A DNA stretch of 6,892 nt from a virus (Duplodnaviria; Heunggongvirae; Uroviricota; Caudoviricetes): IMG/VR virus record IMGVR_UViG_2695420617_000001, positions 1-6,892 of that record. One strand, 5' to 3'. The notes under the pieces were generated by a model. The model saw only the letters and a program-made list of their open reading frames with translations. It was not told the origin of the DNA and searched no databases. The translations under genes and the position numbers were made by a program. Position 1 is the first letter of the stretch; every line of letters starts with the position of its first letter. Of the stretch, positions 1,463-6,892 are shown in pieces.

Positions 1463-2065
1463 TTAATTTCCTGCTTTCAGTTGCTTAAGACGGCGTTTGA
1501 GTTCGCCATTTCGGGCCTTTTCGTTATTGAGTCGGCCGGTATCCTTATCCAGCTTCGCCCGCAAATCAGTGATCTGCTGTTGATGGAAAGACACCGAGTT
1601 CTGCGCTGATTTATAAGCGGCAACCACCTGAGCATTCCGCTGTTTTGCCTCTTGCAGGCGCTGAAAGTTGGATTTTACTGCCGGTTTCTTGTCTACCGGA
1701 TTGGCAACACGTTTCGCTTTGGCGATCAGTGATTTCTGGAATTTTGCGGAGTTTTTGCGGGCCGCTTGCCCCATGACGGTACCAAGCGTCTTGATATCCG
1801 GCGACTGAGCGTTAGGAATAGCTTTTCCATTCAGCCTCACAGACGATATATCGCCAGTATCGTTTACCTGTATGGCAAGAATTTGTCCGTCGTTAAGAAC
1901 CAGCTTTGCGGTTTTAACTTTAACGCCATCTTTCGTTGTTGCGCGGTTGCTGGAGTCAACCTCAATTACCGTAACACCGGTTTTATTGATCGCCGCGATA
2001 AGGGATTTCAGCCCCTTTTCATTAACCTGGTCAAAATCGACCGTTGCATACTTATTTTTCGTCAT
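1463..2065 (-). CDS. Hdf-like protein (homolog of DarA fragment), paralogous to the downstream large ORF
   Basis: Track ORF 1463..2074 (-). I prefer the second ATG (2063-2065), which has AGGA 8 nt upstream; the first ATG at 2072-2074 has no SD. Stop TAA at 1463-1465 is 1 nt from the next gene's ATG (TAAcATG). Lysine-rich C-terminal coiled-coil. Shares KNSAKFQ and flanking residues with the large ORF at 1-1461. Confidence 0.6.
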   Translation of the reverse strand: MTKNKYATVDFDQVNEKGLKSLIAAINKTGVTVIEVDSSNRATTKDGVKVKTAKLVLNDGQILAIQVNDTGDISSVRLNGKAIPNAQSPDIKTLGTVMGQAARKNSAKFQKSLIAKAKRVANPVDKKPAVKSNFQRLQEAKQRNAQVVAAYKSAQNSVSFHQQQITDLRAKLDKDTGRLNNEKARNGELKRRLKQLKAGN

Positions 2066-2495
2066 CTGACACATCCTGTGCGAGATTTATTACGTAACTT
2101 CTGCGGATTTGCTGAGTAACAGGGAAAATCCGATACAACGGGTTAATGAACGAGTCGCCATGCGTAACCATGACGTTGAAATGCCACAGCCGTTCTCCTT
2201 TACCCATATATTCAGTGGGTATGTACAACCATTCACTGTTTTCGCCCTGTTCAGCCGACGTCAAACAACGTTGTTCGCCTTCAATCACTGTCGTTGGCTT
2301 CTGAACATCGCGGATCCAATATCTGACCGTTGCGCCGCGCAAAAACGGGAATTTAGACCGGTATTTGAACGGCACCCGGATGAAACCCGGTTTAATTTCC
2401 ACATCACCAAGTTCTAAATGCGTGATGTCCTTGCGTTTTAGCAAATAGCGATCGGCTAAGGCTAACGCAAGAGCGCATACACCCCAGCCAATCAT
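2052..2495 (-). CDS. Putative antiholin/lysis regulator (LydB-like), N-terminal signal-anchor
   Basis: 147-aa ORF with hydrophobic N-terminus MIGWGVCALALALA. Its ATG overlaps the stop of the upstream holin-like gene in an ATGA arrangement (2492-2495), indicating translational coupling. Assignment is by position after a holin and recalled P1 lydA-lydB order; no search done. Confidence 0.45.
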   Translation of the reverse strand: MIGWGVCALALALADRYLLKRKDITHLELGDVEIKPGFIRVPFKYRSKFPFLRGATVRYWIRDVQKPTTVIEGEQRCLTSAEQGENSEWLYIPTEYMGKGERLWHFNVMVTHGDSFINPLYRIFPVTQQIRRSYVINLAQDVSDDEK

Positions 2496-2821
2496 TTCCC
2501 ACCTCCCTTTTTCACCAAACTTGTAAGAACATTCAGAATGCTATCGATATTCACTCGTTTCATCCCTGAAATCACCTCATGACCGTTATTGCTGGCTATC
2601 GTTACCATTAAGTACGTAATTGATAACTCCCAGCCCTCGTGTTGCCCCAATAGGTACGCCACCGCGCCAGCTGTCACTGCAACAAAGATCTCCGTAACCA
2701 ATCCCAACAAATTGCCAGACTGGCGACCGTCTCGGACATCCATCAGGAACGTGCCTATCCCACCAATTACTGAAAGCAGGAGCGCAATAGCAACTGGAGC
2801 TAATTCCTGTGTGTCAAGCAC
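2492..2821 (-). CDS. Holin-like membrane protein (LydA-like)
   Basis: 109-aa ORF with GTG start (complement of 2819-2821) and a strong AGGAGG SD 6 nt upstream. Two to three predicted transmembrane segments (LAPVAIALLLSVIGGIGTFL, LLGLVTEIFVAVTAGAVAYLL) and a short charged C-terminal tail (KKGGGK), as is typical of holins. Confidence 0.6.
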   Translation of the reverse strand: MLDTQELAPVAIALLLSVIGGIGTFLMDVRDGRQSGNLLGLVTEIFVAVTAGAVAYLLGQHEGWELSITYLMVTIASNNGHEVISGMKRVNIDSILNVLTSLVKKGGGK

Positions 2822-2895
2822 AAGTTCCCTCCTACGTTGTCAGGAGGTAATGGTATGCAAAGTAACTTCTCAACCGGTTATGTTGCATAAGAGAC

Positions 2896-3159
2896 TTACC
2901 TATTCAACCGACTTTTGGAACCTTCAATAATAAGCCTGCTATTGGCGCTGAAAATAAGAACCATGCAGCTCTGAAGGCTTTCATTCATGTCCTTATATTC
3001 CGCGAGATACATGCCAATAAAGCCAGCAAGTACGGCGGAAATACATTCGGCCAGCAATTTCTTGCATGAGGACTCGTAACGGTTTTCACATAGCCCACTC
3101 AAATACGAATACACCCCACCAAGAAGGGATAACATCACGATATGTACATAAAATGTCAT
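2896..3159 (-). CDS. Small hypothetical membrane protein (87 aa), first gene of the minus-strand operon
   Basis: ORF with ATG at 3157-3159 and a weak AGGT SD. Two hydrophobic stretches (VHIVMLSLLGGVYSYLSGL, LLAECISAVLAGFIGMYLAEY). Same strand as the lysis/dar genes. Function unknown. Confidence 0.4.
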   Translation of the reverse strand: MTFYVHIVMLSLLGGVYSYLSGLCENRYESSCKKLLAECISAVLAGFIGMYLAEYKDMNESLQSCMVLIFSANSRLIIEGSKSRLNR

Positions 3160-3286: not shown

Positions 3287-3472
3287 ATGCTAATAGGCTA
3301 TGTACGCATATAGACAAATGAACAAAACACAGCTATGCAGTGAAAAGCACTTGAAAGCGCAGGATGTGAGCTAATTTTTGCGAATAAGGCGAGCAGCAAA
3401 AAGGCTGGGCACCCTAGTTTAAAAAAGGTTCTGCGTATGCTTTCCAGAGGTGATACCCTAGTCTCGGACTAG
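3287..3472 (+). pseudogene. Decayed 5' remnant of a Cin/Gin-type serine invertase gene (two in-frame stops, 3' part deleted)
   Basis: Plus-strand translation from ATG 3287: MLIGYVRI*TNEQNTAMQ*KALESAGCELIFANKASSKKAGHPSLKKVLRMLSRGDTLV, then unrelated sequence. This aligns over about 59 codons with the intact invertase in this window (MQIGYIRVSTNDQNTDLQRNALNCAGCELIFEDKISGTKSARPGLKKLLRTLSEGDTLV), with TAG at codon 9 and TGA at codon 19. Homology ends at 3463, exactly at the left arm of a palindrome. Confidence 0.75.
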
Positions 3473-3474: not shown

Positions 3475-3594
3475 ACAACATTTCGAGGACAGTTTTCATT
3501 AGCGGTCAGCAGGCGCTAGATACATCGAATTGATGTGCCGCGCGATAAATGTACCTATTCTATCAAGATAAATTACACCGACGCGGCATTAGAA

Positions 3595-4167
3595 TTACAG
3601 CTCAGATTGAGTTTGGCGCTTCTCTACAGGATGATAACGATAAATCGTCGATACACCGATATCGTAAATAATTGCCAACTGTTTCCTGCTGTAGCCATTT
3701 TCGATCAACCTCGCTATTTGCTCATGTTGTTCTTTTGTCAACTTCGGGCGACGTCCGCCAATGCGTCCCTGTTCGCGTGCAGCTGCCAGTCCGGCCAGTG
3801 TTCTCTCAACAATTAATTCACGTTCCATTTCTGCTAAAGCACCCATGACATGAAAAAAGAAACGCCCCATGGGTGTTGATGTGTCAATACTGTCTGTCAG
3901 ACTACGGAAATTAACACCTTTTTCCCGCAACTCCTCTATAAGCGTGATAAGGTGTTTCATACTTCTGCCAAGCCTATCCAGCTTCCAGACAACCAGCGTA
4001 TCTCCTTCTGATAACGTTCTGAGCAGCTTTTTCAAGCCTGGTCTGGCTGACTTTGTTCCGCTTATTTTATCTTCAAAAATCAGTTCACATCCTGCGCAGT
4101 TCAGTGCATTTCTTTGTAAATCTGTGTTTTGGTCATTTGTTGACACACGAATGTAGCCAATTTGCAT
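3595..4167 (-). CDS. Serine DNA invertase (site-specific recombinase, Pin/Min/Cin/Gin/Hin family)
   Basis: 190 aa from ATG (complement of 4165-4167), with GAGG SD about 9 nt upstream; the track's TTG at 4176 is probably not the start. Hallmark N-terminus MQIGYIRVSTNDQ with the catalytic serine context, then DTLVVWKLDRLGRS, MGRFFFHVMGALAEMERELIVERT, GRIGGRRPKL and a C-terminal helix-turn-helix (GYSRKQLAIIYDIGVSTIYR). Closest by memory to the Pin/Min subfamily. Confidence 0.93.
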   Translation of the reverse strand: MQIGYIRVSTNDQNTDLQRNALNCAGCELIFEDKISGTKSARPGLKKLLRTLSEGDTLVVWKLDRLGRSMKHLITLIEELREKGVNFRSLTDSIDTSTPMGRFFFHVMGALAEMERELIVERTLAGLAAAREQGRIGGRRPKLTKEQHEQIARLIENGYSRKQLAIIYDIGVSTIYRYHPVEKRQTQSEL

Positions 4168-4221
4168 GAAAAACAACCTCTTTGTTTAGTTAAAAATACA
4201 TCGTTGGTATAGGTAGGGATT

Positions 4222-4247
4222 AAGACTAAAACGTTGGTTTGGGGGAA
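4222..4247 (+). other. Invertase crossover site 1 (26 bp: 12-bp half-sites flanking a 2-bp core), boundary site next to the invertase gene
   Basis: AAGACTAAAACG-TT-GGTTTGGGGGAA. The inner AAAACG/xx/GGTTT pattern matches hix/gix/cix-type sites (for example hixL TTCTTGAAAACC-AA-GGTTTTTGATAA). It lies about 55 bp upstream of the invertase start. Confidence 0.7.
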
Positions 4248-4706
4248 GGCTCAGCATTGCCTGTTGGCGTGCCTGTTCCGTGGCCCTCAGCCACTCCGCC
4301 AACGGGGTGGCTGAAATGCAATGGTGCAGCATTTTCTTCTGAAAAGTACCCAAATCTGGCAAAGGCTTACCCTACTAATAAATTGCCGGATCTACGGGGC
4401 GAATTTATTCGCGGCTGGGATGACGGGCGGGGGATTGACTCTGGCCGTAATTTATTATCTGCACAGAATGATGCAATTCAGAATATTGTTGGTTCTTTCG
4501 GGCGTACTCAGCTTTTTAGAGATGTACTTAGTTCAGGGCCATTTAGTCAACATGGTCAAGTATTATCTACAGGCCTAAAGGAAACGGAAATTATTGAGGG
4601 TTATGGCTCTTATAACTGGACATTCGACGCCTCTCGCTCAGTTCGTACAGCATCTGAAACCCGTCCCCGTAATATTGCATTTAATTACATCGTAAGGGCG
4701 GCATAA
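4236..4706 (+). CDS. Tail fibre C-terminal cassette A (start-codon-less gene segment, silent in this configuration)
   Basis: Open frame from the right half of site 1 to TAA 4704-4706: GLGEGSALPVGVPVPWPSATPPTGWLKCNGAAFSSEKYPNLAKAYPTNKLPDLRGEFIRGWDDGRG, a unique core, then ETRPRNIAFNYIVRAA. The collar-like LPDLRGEFIRGWDDGRG motif is typical of phage tail fibres. No ATG or RBS; the track's M is a TTG. Confidence 0.8.
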   Translation, partial: GLGEGSALPVGVPVPWPSATPPTGWLKCNGAAFSSEKYPNLAKAYPTNKLPDLRGEFIRGWDDGRGIDSGRNLLSAQNDAIQNIVGSFGRTQLFRDVLSSGPFSQHGQVLSTGLKETEIIEGYGSYNWTFDASRSVRTASETRPRNIAFNYIVRAA

Positions 4707-4725
4707 AAACGTTGGTTTAGGGGAA
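4700..4725 (+). other. Invertase crossover site 2
   Basis: GGCATAAAAACG-TT-GGTTTAGGGGAA, same orientation as site 1. The left half-site contains the TAA stop of cassette A. Confidence 0.75.
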
Positions 4726-5175
4726 GGCTCGGCGCTGCCCGTTGGCGTGCCTGTTCCGTGGCCCTCCGCCACACCACCAACGGGGTGGCTGAAATGTAAC
4801 GGAGCAGCATTTTCTTCTGAAAAGTACCCAAATCTGGCAAAGGTTTACCCAACGTTAAAATTACCTGATTTACGCGGTGAGTTTATCCGTGGTTGGGATG
4901 ATGGGCGAGGTGTGGATGCGGGAAGGGTCATCTTAAGCATACAGGGGTGGTTAACAGGAAGTCATTATCATAATATTCGGTCATGGGACGCGTGGGATAA
5001 CACGGTATTGGTGCCAAATGACAGAGGGGGGGATAGTCTGTTGTCGACAGATAACGCCGTCCAAGAAGGAGCGATTAATGGTAAATTTACCAGTCAATAC
5101 AGAACGGAGTTATCTGGGGGGAATGAAACCCGCCCACGTAACATTGCCTTCAATTATATTGTGAGAGCAGCATAA
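4714..5175 (+). CDS. Tail fibre C-terminal cassette B (start-codon-less), translationally coupled to tfa
   Basis: The frame is open from site 2 (GLGEGSALPVGVPVPWPSATPPTGWLKCNG...); the track begins at an internal GTG at 4747. Unique core WLTGSHYHNIRSWDAWDNTVLVPNDRGGDSLLSTDNAVQEG. Ends ETRPRNIAFNYIVRAA with TAA overlapping the tfa ATG (TAATG at 5173-5177). Confidence 0.8.
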   Translation, partial: GLGEGSALPVGVPVPWPSATPPTGWLKCNGAAFSSEKYPNLAKVYPTLKLPDLRGEFIRGWDDGRGVDAGRVILSIQGWLTGSHYHNIRSWDAWDNTVLVPNDRGGDSLLSTDNAVQEGAINGKFTSQYRTELSGGNETRPRNIAFNYIVRAA

Positions 5176-5786
5176 TGGATAATGCGATATTAAATAGCGA
5201 ACTTATAGCCATACAGGCAGGAAACATTATCGTTTATAACTATGATGGTGGTAATCGGGAATATATTTCTGCATCAACTGAATATCTTGCTGTTGGCGTT
5301 GGTATTCCGGCAAATTCTTGTTTGGATGCTCCAGGCTCACATAAAGCAGGTTATGCGATTCTCCGTTCAGAGGATTTAAGTTCATGGGAGTATGTGCCAG
5401 ATCATCGTGGCGAAACTGTCTATAGCATTGACACTGGGAATCCCGAAGAAATCACGGTGTTGGGTGACTATCCGGAAAATACAACCACTATCGCCCCGCT
5501 AACACCATACGACAAATGGGATGGAGAGAAATGGGTGGTTGATACTGAGGCTCAACATAGTGCAGCTGTAGAGGCAGCAGAAACAAAACGTCAGTCATTG
5601 ATTGATACTGCGATGGATTCCATTAGTCTGATTCAGTTGAAATTACGGGCTGGACGGAAGTTGACGCAGGCAGAAACCACGCAGCTTAACTCCGTGCTAG
5701 ATTATATAGACGAGCTGAACGCGATGGATTTAACCACGGCACCAGATCTCAACTGGCCTGAAAAACAACTTTCTACAGCCAGTTGA
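5175..5786 (+). CDS. tfa: Tail fibre assembly protein (Tfa; lambda Tfa / Mu U family chaperone)
   Basis: 203 aa. Recalled lambda Tfa motifs match: IPANS..D.AP, (E/P)DHRG(K/E)TVY, Y(Q/D)KW(N/D)G..WV.DTEA and C-terminal T(S/T)APD(I/L)(E/N)WP. TAATG overlap with cassette B. Confidence 0.9.
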   Translation: MDNAILNSELIAIQAGNIIVYNYDGGNREYISASTEYLAVGVGIPANSCLDAPGSHKAGYAILRSEDLSSWEYVPDHRGETVYSIDTGNPEEITVLGDYPENTTTIAPLTPYDKWDGEKWVVDTEAQHSAAVEAAETKRQSLIDTAMDSISLIQLKLRAGRKLTQAETTQLNSVLDYIDELNAMDLTTAPDLNWPEKQLSTAS

Positions 5787-5791
5787 TATAA

Positions 5792-6298
5792 TTAATCCGC
5801 CCTCACAATATAATTAAATGCAATATTACGAGGGCGGGTTTCTGTACCTACATTTCCACTAATTTCACCATAACGTTTAACACTACGAGAGCTAATAGCT
5901 CGTAGTGAGGAAGGCACCTTATGACCGGGTTCGTCCGTTTTAACTATTCCCCCGTCACCGTATGTAGCTAGTATTCCTGGATTTACGCCTTCCCGTGCAC
6001 TTCCTGCGGCGAGTCCGTCCCCTGTCCATAATTCCATATAGTGTGCATGGTCCAAAATTGTGTGTGGCTGCCAATTAAGCAAAGCGCGGCCAGCATCCAC
6101 CCCGCGCCCATCATCCCAGCCGCGAATAAATTCTCCCCGTAAATCCGGTAATTTATTGGTGGGGTAGGCTTTTGCCAGTTTGGGATACATTTCAGAAGAA
6201 AATGCTGCACCATTGCATTTCAGCCAGCCCGTTGGTGGTGTTTCTAAGGGCCACGGAACGGGCACGCCAACGGGCAATGCTGAGCCTTCCCCCAAACC
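5792..6298 (-). CDS. Tail fibre C-terminal cassette C (start-codon-less, inverted orientation)
   Basis: Minus-strand frame from site 3 to stop (complement of 5792-5794): GEGSALPVGVPVPWPLETPPTGWLKCNGAAFSSEMYPKLAKAYPTNKLPDLRGEFIRGWDDGRG, a unique core, then ETRPRNIAFNYIVRAD. Its stop is 5 bp from the tfa stop (convergent). Confidence 0.8.
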   Translation of the reverse strand, partial: GLGEGSALPVGVPVPWPLETPPTGWLKCNGAAFSSEMYPKLAKAYPTNKLPDLRGEFIRGWDDGRGVDAGRALLNWQPHTILDHAHYMELWTGDGLAAGSAREGVNPGILATYGDGGIVKTDEPGHKVPSSLRAISSRSVKRYGEISGNVGTETRPRNIAFNYIVRAD

Positions 6299-6312
6299 AA
6301 CGTTTTTATGCC
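6287..6312 (-). other. Invertase crossover site 3 (inverted relative to sites 1 and 2)
   Basis: Plus strand TTCCCCCAAACC-AA-CGTTTTTATGCC, which is the reverse complement of GGCATAAAAACG-TT-GGTTTGGGGGAA. It contains the stop codon of cassette D. Confidence 0.75.
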
Positions 6313-6785
6313 GCCCTTACGATGTAATTAAATGCGATATTTCGTGGACGGGTTTCACTCCCGCCAGTATTACCAATACTCCCTCGAGAATGAAGTGTCG
6401 GTGATGGAATCAAATTCCCTCCTGTATTTGAGGCATCAAGCCCCCGTCCTTGTGTGTATGTTTTTTTGAAAATTGTCGCCAGCTCCCATTCATCTTTTGT
6501 GTCGTAACCATCATTGGCTACAACAATATGTCGGTGCTTTTCCAGCATTCCTGTCTGAATGCTCAATAAAGCACGTCCTGTATCAATGCCGCGTCCATCA
6601 TCCCAGCCACGAATAAACTCACCGCGTAAATCAGGTAATTTTAACGTTGGGTAAGCCTTTGCCAGATTTGGGTACTTTTCAGAAGAAAATGCTGCACCAT
6701 TGCATTTCAGCCAGCCTGTTGGCGGAGTGGCTGAAGGCCACGGAACAGGGACACCAACAGGTAATGCAGAGCCTTCTCCCAAACC
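6306..6785 (-). CDS. Tail fibre C-terminal cassette D (start-codon-less, inverted orientation)
   Basis: Minus-strand frame from site 4 to stop (complement of 6306-6308). Same conserved N-module (..AKAYPTLKLPDLRGEFIRGWDDGRG), unique core, then ETRPRNIAFNYIVRAA. Confidence 0.8.
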   Translation of the reverse strand, partial: GLGEGSALPVGVPVPWPSATPPTGWLKCNGAAFSSEKYPNLAKAYPTLKLPDLRGEFIRGWDDGRGIDTGRALLSIQTGMLEKHRHIVVANDGYDTKDEWELATIFKKTYTQGRGLDASNTGGNLIPSPTLHSRGSIGNTGGSETRPRNIAFNYIVRAA

Positions 6786-6799
6786 AACGTTTTTATGCC
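6774..6799 (-). other. Invertase crossover site 4 (inverted relative to sites 1 and 2)
   Basis: Plus strand TTCTCCCAAACC-AA-CGTTTTTATGCC. It contains the stop codon of the partial cassette E. Confidence 0.75.
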
Positions 6800-6803
6800 G
6801 CCC

Positions 6804-6892
6804 TTACGATATAATTAAACGCAATGTTACGAGGACGAATGGTTACATAATTAACCCCATCACCTCGTGAAGGCCCTGCAAATGAAAAACGG
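6804..6892 (-). CDS. Tail fibre C-terminal cassette E, 3' end only (continues beyond the window end)
   Basis: Minus-strand translation of 6892..6804 gives ..RFSFAGPSRGDGVNYVTIRPRNIAFNYIVRAA then stop (complement of 6804-6806). It has the shared C-terminal motif but a different preceding sequence, so it is a fifth distinct cassette. Confidence 0.65.

Follow-up and report, generated by a model that had tools for sequence, protein, structure and literature searches.

Multiple DNA inversion at a tail-fibre locus was reportedly described by Sandmeier, Iida and Arber in 1990-1992 as the Min system of p15B (E. coli 15T-); p15B has six cassettes, for which the 1990 and 1991 work of Sandmeier is said to give 240 isomers, and inversion in p15B hybrids is said, in Sandmeier's 1992 work, to switch host range. 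The R64 shufflon (Rci) similarly uses a cluster of invertible segments to put alternative C-termini on one constant gene, but with a tyrosine recombinase, with the pilus adhesin PilV as its target and with no chaperone gene. In phages P1 (C segment, Cin) and Mu (G segment, Gin), a serine invertase lies beside an invertible segment through which the fibre gene exchanges its 3' end, and there are two sites, two alternative convergent ends and PF02413-type chaperone genes, U and U', one per orientation (PMC13172314). Simple units of the e14 Pin/P-segment type in enterobacterial prophages also have two sites; in them a collar cassette with tfaE faces, in convergent arrangement, a non-collar fibre end with a short tfa, and each of the two structural classes of fibre end has a chaperone of its own class.

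The window, by which we mean the whole stretch of 6,892 nucleotides analysed (Table 1), is, as judged from its sequence and that of its relatives, the Min-type (p15B-like) multiple-inversion tail-fibre region of a P1-like phage-plasmid, an architecture already known. The sequence-only reading of this DNA had described a G-segment-like unit with one tfa, which stands, but had not recognised the published p15B Min system. The genes around the array are P1-like (by Pfam, a DarA_N-domain protein (hdf-like), lydB, lydA, a holin and the invertase), and the 258 plasmid matches are mostly to ~95-kb E. coli phage-plasmids. An invertase of the serine Hin/Gin/Cin/Pin/Min family adjoins the invertible DNA, as in Min, and next to it lies a pseudo-invertase fragment (3287-3463), found also in Min-type relatives, which we take to be the equivalent of the psi-min reportedly described in the abstract of Sandmeier's 1991 paper. 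The invertase is 100% identical to that of pMCR_SCKP-LL83 and of other P1-like plasmids, and the pMCR_SCKP-LL83 array, reported to be 99% identical to p15B min (PMC5786510), matches window interval 3500-6892 at 95% identity across 80% of that interval. In common with p15B, the locus has a P1-like backbone, a Min/Pin-type serine invertase flanked by a pseudo-invertase fragment, numerous 26-bp sites, each at the 5' edge of one alternative 3' cassette of a single fibre gene, one double segment and a Tfa 100% identical to UniProt TFAB_ECOLX. It differs only in isomer and cassette repertoire: at least five cassettes in the window element, with a T2/T6 chimera, not T6, in the convergent slot. P1-like resistance plasmids now commonly carry this p15B-type system.

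Table 1. Features of the window, in nucleotides from its first letter.
Feature	Positions	Strand	Remarks
P1-type late promoter	2850..2868	-	Lpa box AAGTTACTT and -10; upstream of lydA; sole late promoter in the window
Truncated pseudo-invertase 5' fragment, psi-min-like	3287..3463	+	tblastn, 61% identity to invertase N-terminus; 59 aa; in-frame stop
Serine DNA invertase (Min/Pin/Cin/Gin/Hin family)	3595..4167	-	PF00239 (E=2e-51) and PF02796; transcribed away from the array
Crossover site 1	4222..4247	+	Core TT 4234-4235; border of invertase flank and cassette A
Cassette A, type T7	4236..4706	+	156 codons; PF07484; collar domain and variable tip without HxH motif; no start codon
Crossover site 2	4700..4725	+	Core TT 4712-4713; overlaps cassette A stop codon
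Cassette B, type T3	4714..5175	+	153 codons; PF07484; stop overlaps tfa start (TAATG)
tfa, tail-fibre assembly chaperone gene	5175..5786	+	203 aa; PF02413 (E=3e-30) over residues 78-197; 100% identical to TFAB_ECOLX
Cassette C	5792..6298	-	168 codons; PF07484; convergent on tfa; chimera of T2 variable region and T6-type 3' tail (..IVRAD)
Crossover site 3	6287..6312	-	Core 6299-6300; inverted relative to site 2
Cassette D, type T1	6306..6785	-	159 codons; PF07484
Crossover site 4	6774..6799	-	Core 6786-6787
Cassette E, fifth, T4-like, 3' end only	6793..6892	-	..YVTIRPRNIAFNYIVRAA; runs off the window

The four 26-bp crossover sites of the window conform to GCATAAAAACG-TT-GGTTTrGGrGAAGG and lie one at the 5' edge of each cassette, two in each orientation, so that sites exceed two and mark cassette 5' boundaries as in Min. 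The invertase is expected to recombine any two inversely oriented sites, and each inversion would fuse a different promoterless 3' cassette to fibre gene S, whose constant part would end ...SIQSVLNYL|GLGEGS. Sites 2 and 3 are indeed inverted relative to each other and bracket cassette B, tfa and the convergent cassette C, as had been proposed; the end proposed for this unit, 6286, immediately precedes the inner half-site of site 3 (6287-6298) and differs only trivially from the core. Both sites sit in 268-nt inverted arms that are 86% complementary, far beyond chance. The identity (100%) of S. Typhi plasmid ph681355 to the window starts precisely at 4712 and runs to 6820, and to the left of 4712 the plasmid has the constant fibre part in place of cassette A; since this breakpoint falls exactly at its core, site 2 is a real crossover point. 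Natural isomers among related plasmids have the same cassette types with only order and orientation changed, and different cassettes fused to Sc. As in Min, inversions do join alternative cassettes to the constant 5' part, on the evidence of these comparisons.

Complete relatives have 5-11 cassettes and, in a strict search, 5-9 matches to the site pattern. Ordinary segments would hold one cassette each, and exactly one, a double segment, would hold two convergent cassettes with tfa between them. A model of polar single segments plus one double segment yields m! x 2 isomers, or 240 for five segments, the number given for p15B. With tfa between convergent B and C in the one double segment, inversion would never separate B, tfa and C.

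PF07484 was detected in each of cassettes A-D (E~1e-15), with an N-terminal collar motif and a returning C-terminal strand as in collar-domain tips of the T4 gp12/gp37 type. Each cassette would be a complete fibre tip: its ~66 conserved residues would join with the last 13-16 to make up the collar domain, and the stretch of 60-90 variable residues that separates them would be the receptor-binding tip. In phmmer searches against the PDB, the full cassette aligned to the 9cuy short tail fibre (E=1.6e-17), its N-terminal part and C-terminal motif aligned to the T4 gp37 tip 2xgf (C-end NIAFNYIVRLA), and the cassettes also matched T4 gp12 (GNETRPWNISLNYIIK), whereas no sequence match of the window cassettes to P1 or Mu fibre ends was detectable. 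The cassettes share with these three proteins the collar domain, the C-terminal strand motif (NIAFNYIVR / NISLNYIIK) and the HxH motifs, present in the inserted region of B, C and D. The T4 proteins differ in being products of fixed genes, with long needles and no DNA inversion. An AlphaFold2 monomer of cassette B, from an alignment of the four window cassettes only, was unusable (pLDDT 34, pTM 0.15).

The window, which is cut on the right, contains a single tfa, as first noted, and its relatives agree: in 22 of 23 related loci with three or more cassettes, a lone long tfa is present and a short one is absent. Plasmid NZ_CP063505.1, complete at 94 kb, encodes an identical Tfa and has 11 cassettes, including one fused to the constant part, and a single tfa in its whole genome by annotation as by HMM match. 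Behind the fibre ends of the window locus there is thus no assembly gene for each, in contrast to Mu G or P1 C; the layout was rightly said to depart from that of U and U', with many sites and ends, one tfa, which is antisense for one end of the double segment, and cassette C ending 5 bp from it (tfa stop at 5784-5786, C stop at 5792-5794). Among inversion loci, a collar cassette is convergent on tfa in 26, and 84 have the e14-type layout.

The Tfa has the conserved C-terminal domain of the Tfa/Caudo_TAP family (PF02413), and compared with a short tfa' its C-terminal half is far better conserved than its N-terminal half; phmmer of the window Tfa against the PDB returned no match, Mu Tfa 5YVQ included. 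The gene lies directly behind a fibre gene, as is usual in the family, with a 1-nt stop/start overlap at all 89 usable cassette-tfa junctions. In Min-type arrays its constant upstream neighbour is B (T3).

We consider it probable that the locus is a Min double segment B-tfa-C with collar-type tips, a single generic Tfa and tfa expression by read-through. The proposal that one chaperone serves every cassette variant is supported, as regards a shared scaffold, by comparison with the simple inversion units, in which counterparts of the variable regions of A (96% identical, in locus L037), C (95%, L033) and D (95%, L092 and others) are each directly followed by their own coupled TfaE-type gene. 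These units share with the window the TAATG coupling, the invertase family and a chaperone 76-82% identical to its Tfa. The T5, T11 and T13 tips likewise have close counterparts in simple units, each with a coupled tfa, and in two-tfa units the second, short tfa adjoins a fibre end that is not of collar type. When Tfa N-domains are clustered by single linkage at 90%, the members of one cluster are coupled to 10 tip types unrelated to one another, and Tfa pairs 85-95% identical in the N-domain go with tips whose median identity is 27%. The single Tfa would accordingly be a chaperone generic for the collar-type tip class. The T5 cassette of pF719-4 comes with a Tfa of its own, and the N-domains of this protein and of the window Tfa are only 30% identical; there may be some specificity between Tfa N-domain and tip. 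Chaperones dedicated to single tips, a reading drawn from that 30% identity, were discarded on a census of 89 pairs in which near-identical N-domains occur on unrelated tips.

The 95-96% identical counterparts of A, C and D with their own TfaE-type genes disfavour an idea raised earlier, that the other cassettes are Tfa-independent. In its full form this would make Tfa the dedicated partner of B, the remaining cassettes folding with no Tfa and hence carrying none. B and tfa are indeed always adjacent and translationally coupled; C is never co-transcribed with tfa, yet is intact and in some assemblies expressed; and T4 gp12, which is not known to need a Tfa-family protein, shares the collar fold and C-terminal motif. 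Moreover, T3 is always tied to the window-type Tfa in the main lineage, so covariation within Min arrays reads the same for a B-specific as for a generic chaperone. Against B as the sole client, besides those counterparts, T5 has its own coupled Tfa in pF719-4, a second array lineage has the same Tfa cluster (cluster 4) behind a T3 or a T10-like cassette, and window C is a T2 tip brought into the convergent slot by recombination, so that no special, chaperone-free kind of tip has this slot to itself. We judge a B-only chaperone unlikely.

A little less likely still is a peptide dedicated to Tfa binding at the cassette ends. The last 14-16 residues had been put forward as a common docking module, and A, B, C and D do all end in ETRPRNIAFNYIVRA, but partial cassette E has TIRPRNIAFNYIVRAA, and the core common to all five is RPRNIAFNYIVRA. 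Between paralogues this core shows no nonsynonymous and 3-11 synonymous codon changes, so it is the protein that is conserved and not the DNA, with selection at the protein level on both cassette ends. Such invariance would suit a docking peptide, as would the fact that Tfa N-domain identity follows the conserved frame (Spearman 0.64) better than the variable region (0.23) and the binding of the Tfa of Mu and Pam3, via the N-domain, to C-terminal/distal regions of their fibres (PMC9608196). However, the motif matches the C-terminal portion of the phage collar domain and is found at the ends of T4 gp12 and of T4 gp37, which is folded by gp57A and gp38 with no PF02413 Tfa (PMC9608196), and is hence a fold element rather than a Tfa-specific tag. 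The gp37 chain doubles back from head to collar (PMC12609058), and completion of the collar by the returning chain accounts for the conservation. In 9cuy the motif lies mid-protein (residues ~290-303 of 554), with no free C-terminus, and it stays constant while Tfa N-domains fall to 30-60% identity. The docking module is therefore unsupported as it was stated, whereas service of all variants by one chaperone through the shared scaffold holds up. That the array is instead a decaying relic, with pseudogenes for silent cassettes and a tfa merely left over, is hardly credible. Relatives L003, L008, L009 and L011 do have frameshifted cassette copies, and insertion elements break some arrays, as ISEcp1-blaCTX-M-15 does in ph681355. 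Nevertheless, 65 of 78 cassettes are intact in the first 12 sources, dN/dS against distant counterparts is 0.07-0.32 for A, C and D, purifying selection on both conserved cassette ends is strong, and natural isomers show inversion to be active. The dN/dS range leaves out two comparisons of C, with L002 and L004, in which a different 168-codon cassette had been paired with it.

A late-promoter motif built from the sequences ahead of R, lydA and lyz has a single perfect match in the window, and in 12 of 13 related loci it matches only upstream of R and/or lydA, always in the direction of Sc (L013 has no match). No such box was found inside or facing the array in any locus scanned. Sigma-70-like scans of the window array, the invertase flank and the divergent unit of L012 gave matches at or below chance, although scans as simple as these could miss a real promoter; one weak match lies inside B (4834-4861, + strand). 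Terminator-like matches were no more frequent than chance, and by eye no conserved promoter-like element was noticed in an alignment of four divergent cassette-tfa junction sequences. A promoter in the pseudo-invertase fragment reading into the array was also considered and is unsupported, the sigma-70-like scan there being at or below chance. In P1vir, U and U' are both reported up-regulated by RNA-seq, in data whose strandedness is not stated.

With read-through, the one late promoter ahead of R-S would drive tfa. Its translation would be coupled to that of B in isomers with B fused to S; with silent cassettes in between, tfa would rely on its own weak ribosome-binding site, which we see by eye. 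In the remaining half of the isomers, and in every one with C fused to S, it would lie antisense to the late promoter. Since the only late promoters point one way, tfa is antisense whenever C is expressed and, overall, in about half of the isomers, an orientation problem that the sequence-only reading had missed. U is essential for plaque formation by P1 (PMC10695390). If Tfa is as essential as U and is supplied by read-through only, about half of the isomers and all those expressing C would lack the chaperone. The sole tfa inside invertible DNA could be a hidden second switch, whereby antisense isomers are fibre-defective, as a cost or gating of host-range switching, or else the tips obtain Tfa by an undescribed route (an orientation-independent promoter or host prophage TfaE) or fold without it; we offer this tentatively.

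Cassette C is intact in 26 of 27 loci, and it is the expressed cassette in L008, L016 and L028, an observation that speaks against an essential Tfa supplied by read-through only.

Supply of Tfa independently of orientation or in trans, from an unrecognised promoter in B or the invertase flank or from TfaE-like genes of a resident prophage, would make all isomers productive. Assemblies show antisense and sense isomers in similar numbers (7 vs 8), stability of the B-tfa-C layout, and of the minimal single-tfa unit of S. Typhi plasmid LT905089 (L012), extends over two Tfa lineages only 57% identical, one weak sigma-70-like match lies on the + strand inside B, and enterobacterial chromosomes commonly carry TfaE-like genes (75-80% identical). 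Weighed against these are the lack of an Lpa box in or facing the array in any scanned locus, the chance-level or lower sigma-70-like matches in the window and L012, the four junctions with no position-conserved promoter-like element noticed by eye, and the fact that resident prophage genes are normally repressed. Such a supply is possible, but we think it the less probable course, and generic Tfa expressed by read-through remains the reading we prefer.

The orientation of the single tfa offers a cheap test both of the Tfa requirement and of whether these arrays waste half of their configurations. If it is true that one Tfa can fold all collar-type tips, exchange of the ~60-90-residue insert alone, with no new chaperone per tip, could be enough to retarget P1-like vectors and other phages. 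Neither point alters the classification of the locus as a p15B Min system, reportedly described in 1990-1992. The natural T2/T6 chimera in the window indicates that such swaps happen at exactly the collar/variable borders.

Because the window is cut at its right end, we used relatives to count tfa (tail-fibre assembly) genes. A Tfa at least 99% identical occurs in 83 plasmid records, and among the whole-plasmid records listed a near-identical Tfa is present once per record. We also gathered 126 further loci by Tfa alignment from viral contigs and species-representative genomes; in 22 of the 23 loci that carry three or more collar cassettes (the alternative fibre tips), there was one long tfa and no short tfa. 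The complete 94-kb plasmid NZ_CP063505.1 has 11 cassettes, one of them fused to the constant 5' part of the fibre gene, and a Tfa identical to that of the window; no second tfa was found in it, either in its annotation (one tfa) or by a six-frame HMM search for long and short Tfa (one ORF). That only one tfa accompanies the whole array, as proposed in the sequence-only reading, is thus borne out by 22 of 23 multi-cassette loci and by one whole plasmid, and further tfa genes in the flanks were present in no close relative examined. The sole census exception, L024 (IMGVR_UViG_2541047915_000010), has two copies of the double segment, B-tfa-C, inverted relative to each other, and so two tfa genes, in the order c159> TFA< c153< c153> TFA> c159<. 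The proposed geometry also stands: inverted sites 2 and 3, in arms of 268 nt with 86% complementarity, flank cassette B, tfa and the convergent cassette C, the stops of tfa (5784-5786) and C (5792-5794) are 5 bp apart, and 6286, where the unit had been said to end, is the base preceding the inner half-site of site 3. The window cassettes have 143-168 codons and are promoterless.

Positions and strands of features in the window
Feature	Position	Strand	Remark
DarA_N-domain protein (hdf-like)	1463-2074	-	P1-type gene
lydB	2052-2495	-	P1-type gene
lydA	2492-2821	-	P1-type gene
P1 late-promoter box	2850-2868	-	match to derived box
Second holin	2896-3159	-	P1-type gene set
Pseudo-invertase 5' fragment	3287-3463	+	59 aa, in-frame stop; 61% identity to adjoining invertase
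Serine invertase	3595-4167	-	PF00239 + PF02796
Site 1 core	4234-4235	+
Cassette A	4236-4706	+	PF07484 (Phage Tail Collar domain)
Site 2 core	4712-4713	+
Cassette B	4714-5175	+	PF07484
tfa	5175-5786	+	PF02413; sole tail-fibre assembly gene in window
Cassette C	5792-6298	-	PF07484
Site 3 core	6299-6300	-
Cassette D	6306-6785	-	PF07484
Site 4 core	6786-6787	-
Cassette E (fifth)	6793-6892	-	3' end only

For the interval 3500-6892 there are 258 matching plasmid records, the majority from non-mobilizable E. coli plasmids of ~95 kb and some from Salmonella or Klebsiella; the whole window matches many complete E. coli genomes, and the matching elements are P1-like phage-plasmids. The top plasmid match, pMCR_SCKP-LL83, shares both invertase and Tfa with the window at 100% identity. 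The window Tfa is an exact match to UniProt TFAB_ECOLX ('Tail fiber assembly protein homolog'), which we take to be the p15B protein. The pseudo-invertase fragment, retained in every Min-type relative and in P1-like plasmids with simple, one-cassette units, is probably psi-min of p15B, as reported in the Sandmeier 1991 abstract. The locus is the Min (multiple-inversion) system and no new kind of element; its architecture is already known and is found in hundreds of sequenced plasmids.

The 26-bp site at the start of every cassette reads GCATAAAAACG-TT-GGTTTrGGrGAAGG. That they are used is seen in the S. Typhi plasmid ph681355: starting exactly at the site 2 core, it matches window 4712-6820 at 100% identity, and left of 4712 it has the constant part of the fibre gene (...SIQSVLNYL, half-site TTCTTAATTACC) where the window has cassette A. 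Ten arrays draw on the same 13 cassette types, in varying order and orientation, and the type fused to the constant part also varies. An ordinary segment is polar: its 5' end carries a right half-site, and its 3' end the left half belonging to the next site, stop codon included. B-tfa-C is the sole segment with right half-sites at both ends, and the constant and invertase flanks bring one left half-site each. The number of configurations is then m! x 2 with m segments, or 240 with five, reportedly the figure published for p15B. The model predicts that with B expressed tfa would always be sense and adjacent, with C expressed never sense, and with any other cassette expressed sense in half of the configurations. 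Of 15 assembled isomers (arrays L001-L030; small numbers), 5 had B joined to the constant part, above the ~6-10% expected from random shuffling, an excess that might stem from the isomer carried by the infecting particle or from preferred sites. Several 'plasmid' records or contigs of ~2 kb hold nothing but B-tfa-C or match only that segment (CP088785.1, 2058 bp; NZ_CP142924.1, 2021 bp; NZ_CP148556.1, 1868 bp; NZ_CP148330.1, 1878 bp; L093, 1695 bp); since inverted repeats flank it, they are most likely assembly artefacts rather than real replicons.

Cassettes A, B, C and D terminate in ETRPRNIAFNYIVRA and E carries TIRPRNIAFNYIVRAA, so that the identical ending ascribed to all cassettes holds for A-D and shrinks to RPRNIAFNYIVRA as the core common to all five. 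Its suggested role as a common Tfa-docking module we abandon. The full length of cassette B aligns to the solved 'short tail fiber' 9cuy (E=1.6e-17); its first ~65 and again its last ~20 residues align to the T4 gp37 tip 2xgf (C-end ...NIAFNYIVRLA), and there is an alignment to T4 gp12 (...GNETRPWNISLNYIIK) as well. The gp37 tip comprises collar, needle and head, with the chain turning back at the head to rejoin the collar (PMC12609058), and hence the first ~66 and last 13-16 cassette residues are alike parts of the collar domain; between them, the variable stretch of each cassette is the receptor-binding insert. Since gp37 is folded by gp57A and gp38 with no PF02413 protein (PMC9608196), and the motif lies inside the 9cuy protein instead of at a free C-terminus, it is an element of the fold and no Tfa-specific tag. 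Both cassette ends are conserved as protein, not DNA: between paralogue pairs the RPRNIAFNYIVRA core has 0 nonsynonymous versus 3-11 synonymous codon changes, and the N-terminal 66 codons 1-6 versus 16-25. In all cassettes but B and C, the two final codons and the stop double as part of the next crossover site. The variable regions of B, C and D contain HxH motifs (HYH, HAH and HRH, respectively) similar to the di-histidines that bind metal in T4 gp37; cassette A has no HxH and is like the 9cuy type (DAIQNIVGSF).

In cassette C, a recombinant, a T2 tip is joined to a T6-type tail within the ETRPRN codons. In other arrays T2 is a single-segment cassette ending ..VAFNYIVRAA; from the ETRPRN codons on, C is identical to the T6-type tail (..IVRAD) and tfa end. 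The convergent slot is therefore not reserved for a special tip, and the conserved C-terminal codons serve as a homologous-recombination handle for tip swaps.

The commonest context of the Tfa family is a simple unit of invertase, one collar cassette, tfa, and a convergent short tfa' with a non-collar fibre end (84 loci, versus 26 with a collar cassette convergent on tfa). The variable regions of A, C and D recur in such units (L037, L033, L092 and others) at 96%, 95% and 95% identity (dN/dS 0.07, 0.32 and 0.08, respectively), each with a TfaE-type gene translationally coupled behind it; the N-domains of these proteins are 76-80% identical to that of the window Tfa. When Tfa were clustered on their first 100 residues at 90%, one cluster of 49 pairs was coupled to 10 unrelated variable-region types, and Tfa pairs 85-95% identical in the N-domain had a median tip identity of 27%. 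A second array lineage, with Tfa 83% identical, has T3, the type of B, upstream of tfa in eight loci and a T10-like cassette there in one. Min cassettes lacking a tfa are thus Tfa clients elsewhere, and Tfa of the window's type is not tied to any one tip; one Tfa probably serves all tips, the comparison favouring the one-chaperone option raised in the sequence-only reading. A counter-example is pF719-4, where a T5 cassette with a variable region 97% identical to T5 of Min arrays has a Tfa only 30% identical in the N-domain. Together with the constant pairing of T3 and window-type Tfa, never separated in the main Min lineage, it leaves room for some Tfa-tip specificity.

Cassette stop and tfa start overlap by one base at 89 of 89 usable junctions. 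Cassette B contains homopolymeric G runs (G7 at 5026-5032, G6 at 5116-5121), and its copies in L008, L009 and L011 are frameshifted and terminate at those positions, which may be sequencing error or slippage; such a frameshift would break the translational coupling of tfa to B.

A P1 late-promoter box, AAGTTACTT-N4-TAnnnT, was derived here from the upstream regions of R, lydA and lyz; it marks Lpa-dependent operons with high specificity. In 12 of 13 P1-like loci (~15-20 kb each) it lies only upstream of R and/or lydA, always oriented toward the constant fibre part; L013 had no match, and in none of the 13 was a box inside or facing an array. Sigma-70-like and terminator-like matches were at or below chance in the array, the invertase flank and the divergent single-tfa unit. 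These scans leave read-through from the R-S late promoter as the only supported source of tfa mRNA, which works only with tfa sense. Assemblies that show the constant part divide into 8 with tfa sense and 7 with it antisense, and in L008, L016 and L028 the convergent cassette is the expressed one. The same orientation problem arises in a minimal two-cassette invertible unit on an S. Typhi plasmid (L012, LT905089.1, 6474-10612), a two-state switch with two collar ends and one tfa, 6 bp from the convergent fibre gene, encoding a Tfa only 57% identical to the window's. An essential score is reported for U, the chaperone of P1 (PMC10695390). For the array this leaves unproductive isomers (about half of them), an undetected route of Tfa supply, or a relaxed Tfa requirement; of the whole locus, only this orientation dependence might merit an experiment in a specialist's eyes. 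In ph681355, ISEcp1-blaCTX-M-15 sits within the cassette array (L001 11296-13689, CP083412.1), making a host-range locus the landing site of a resistance transposon.
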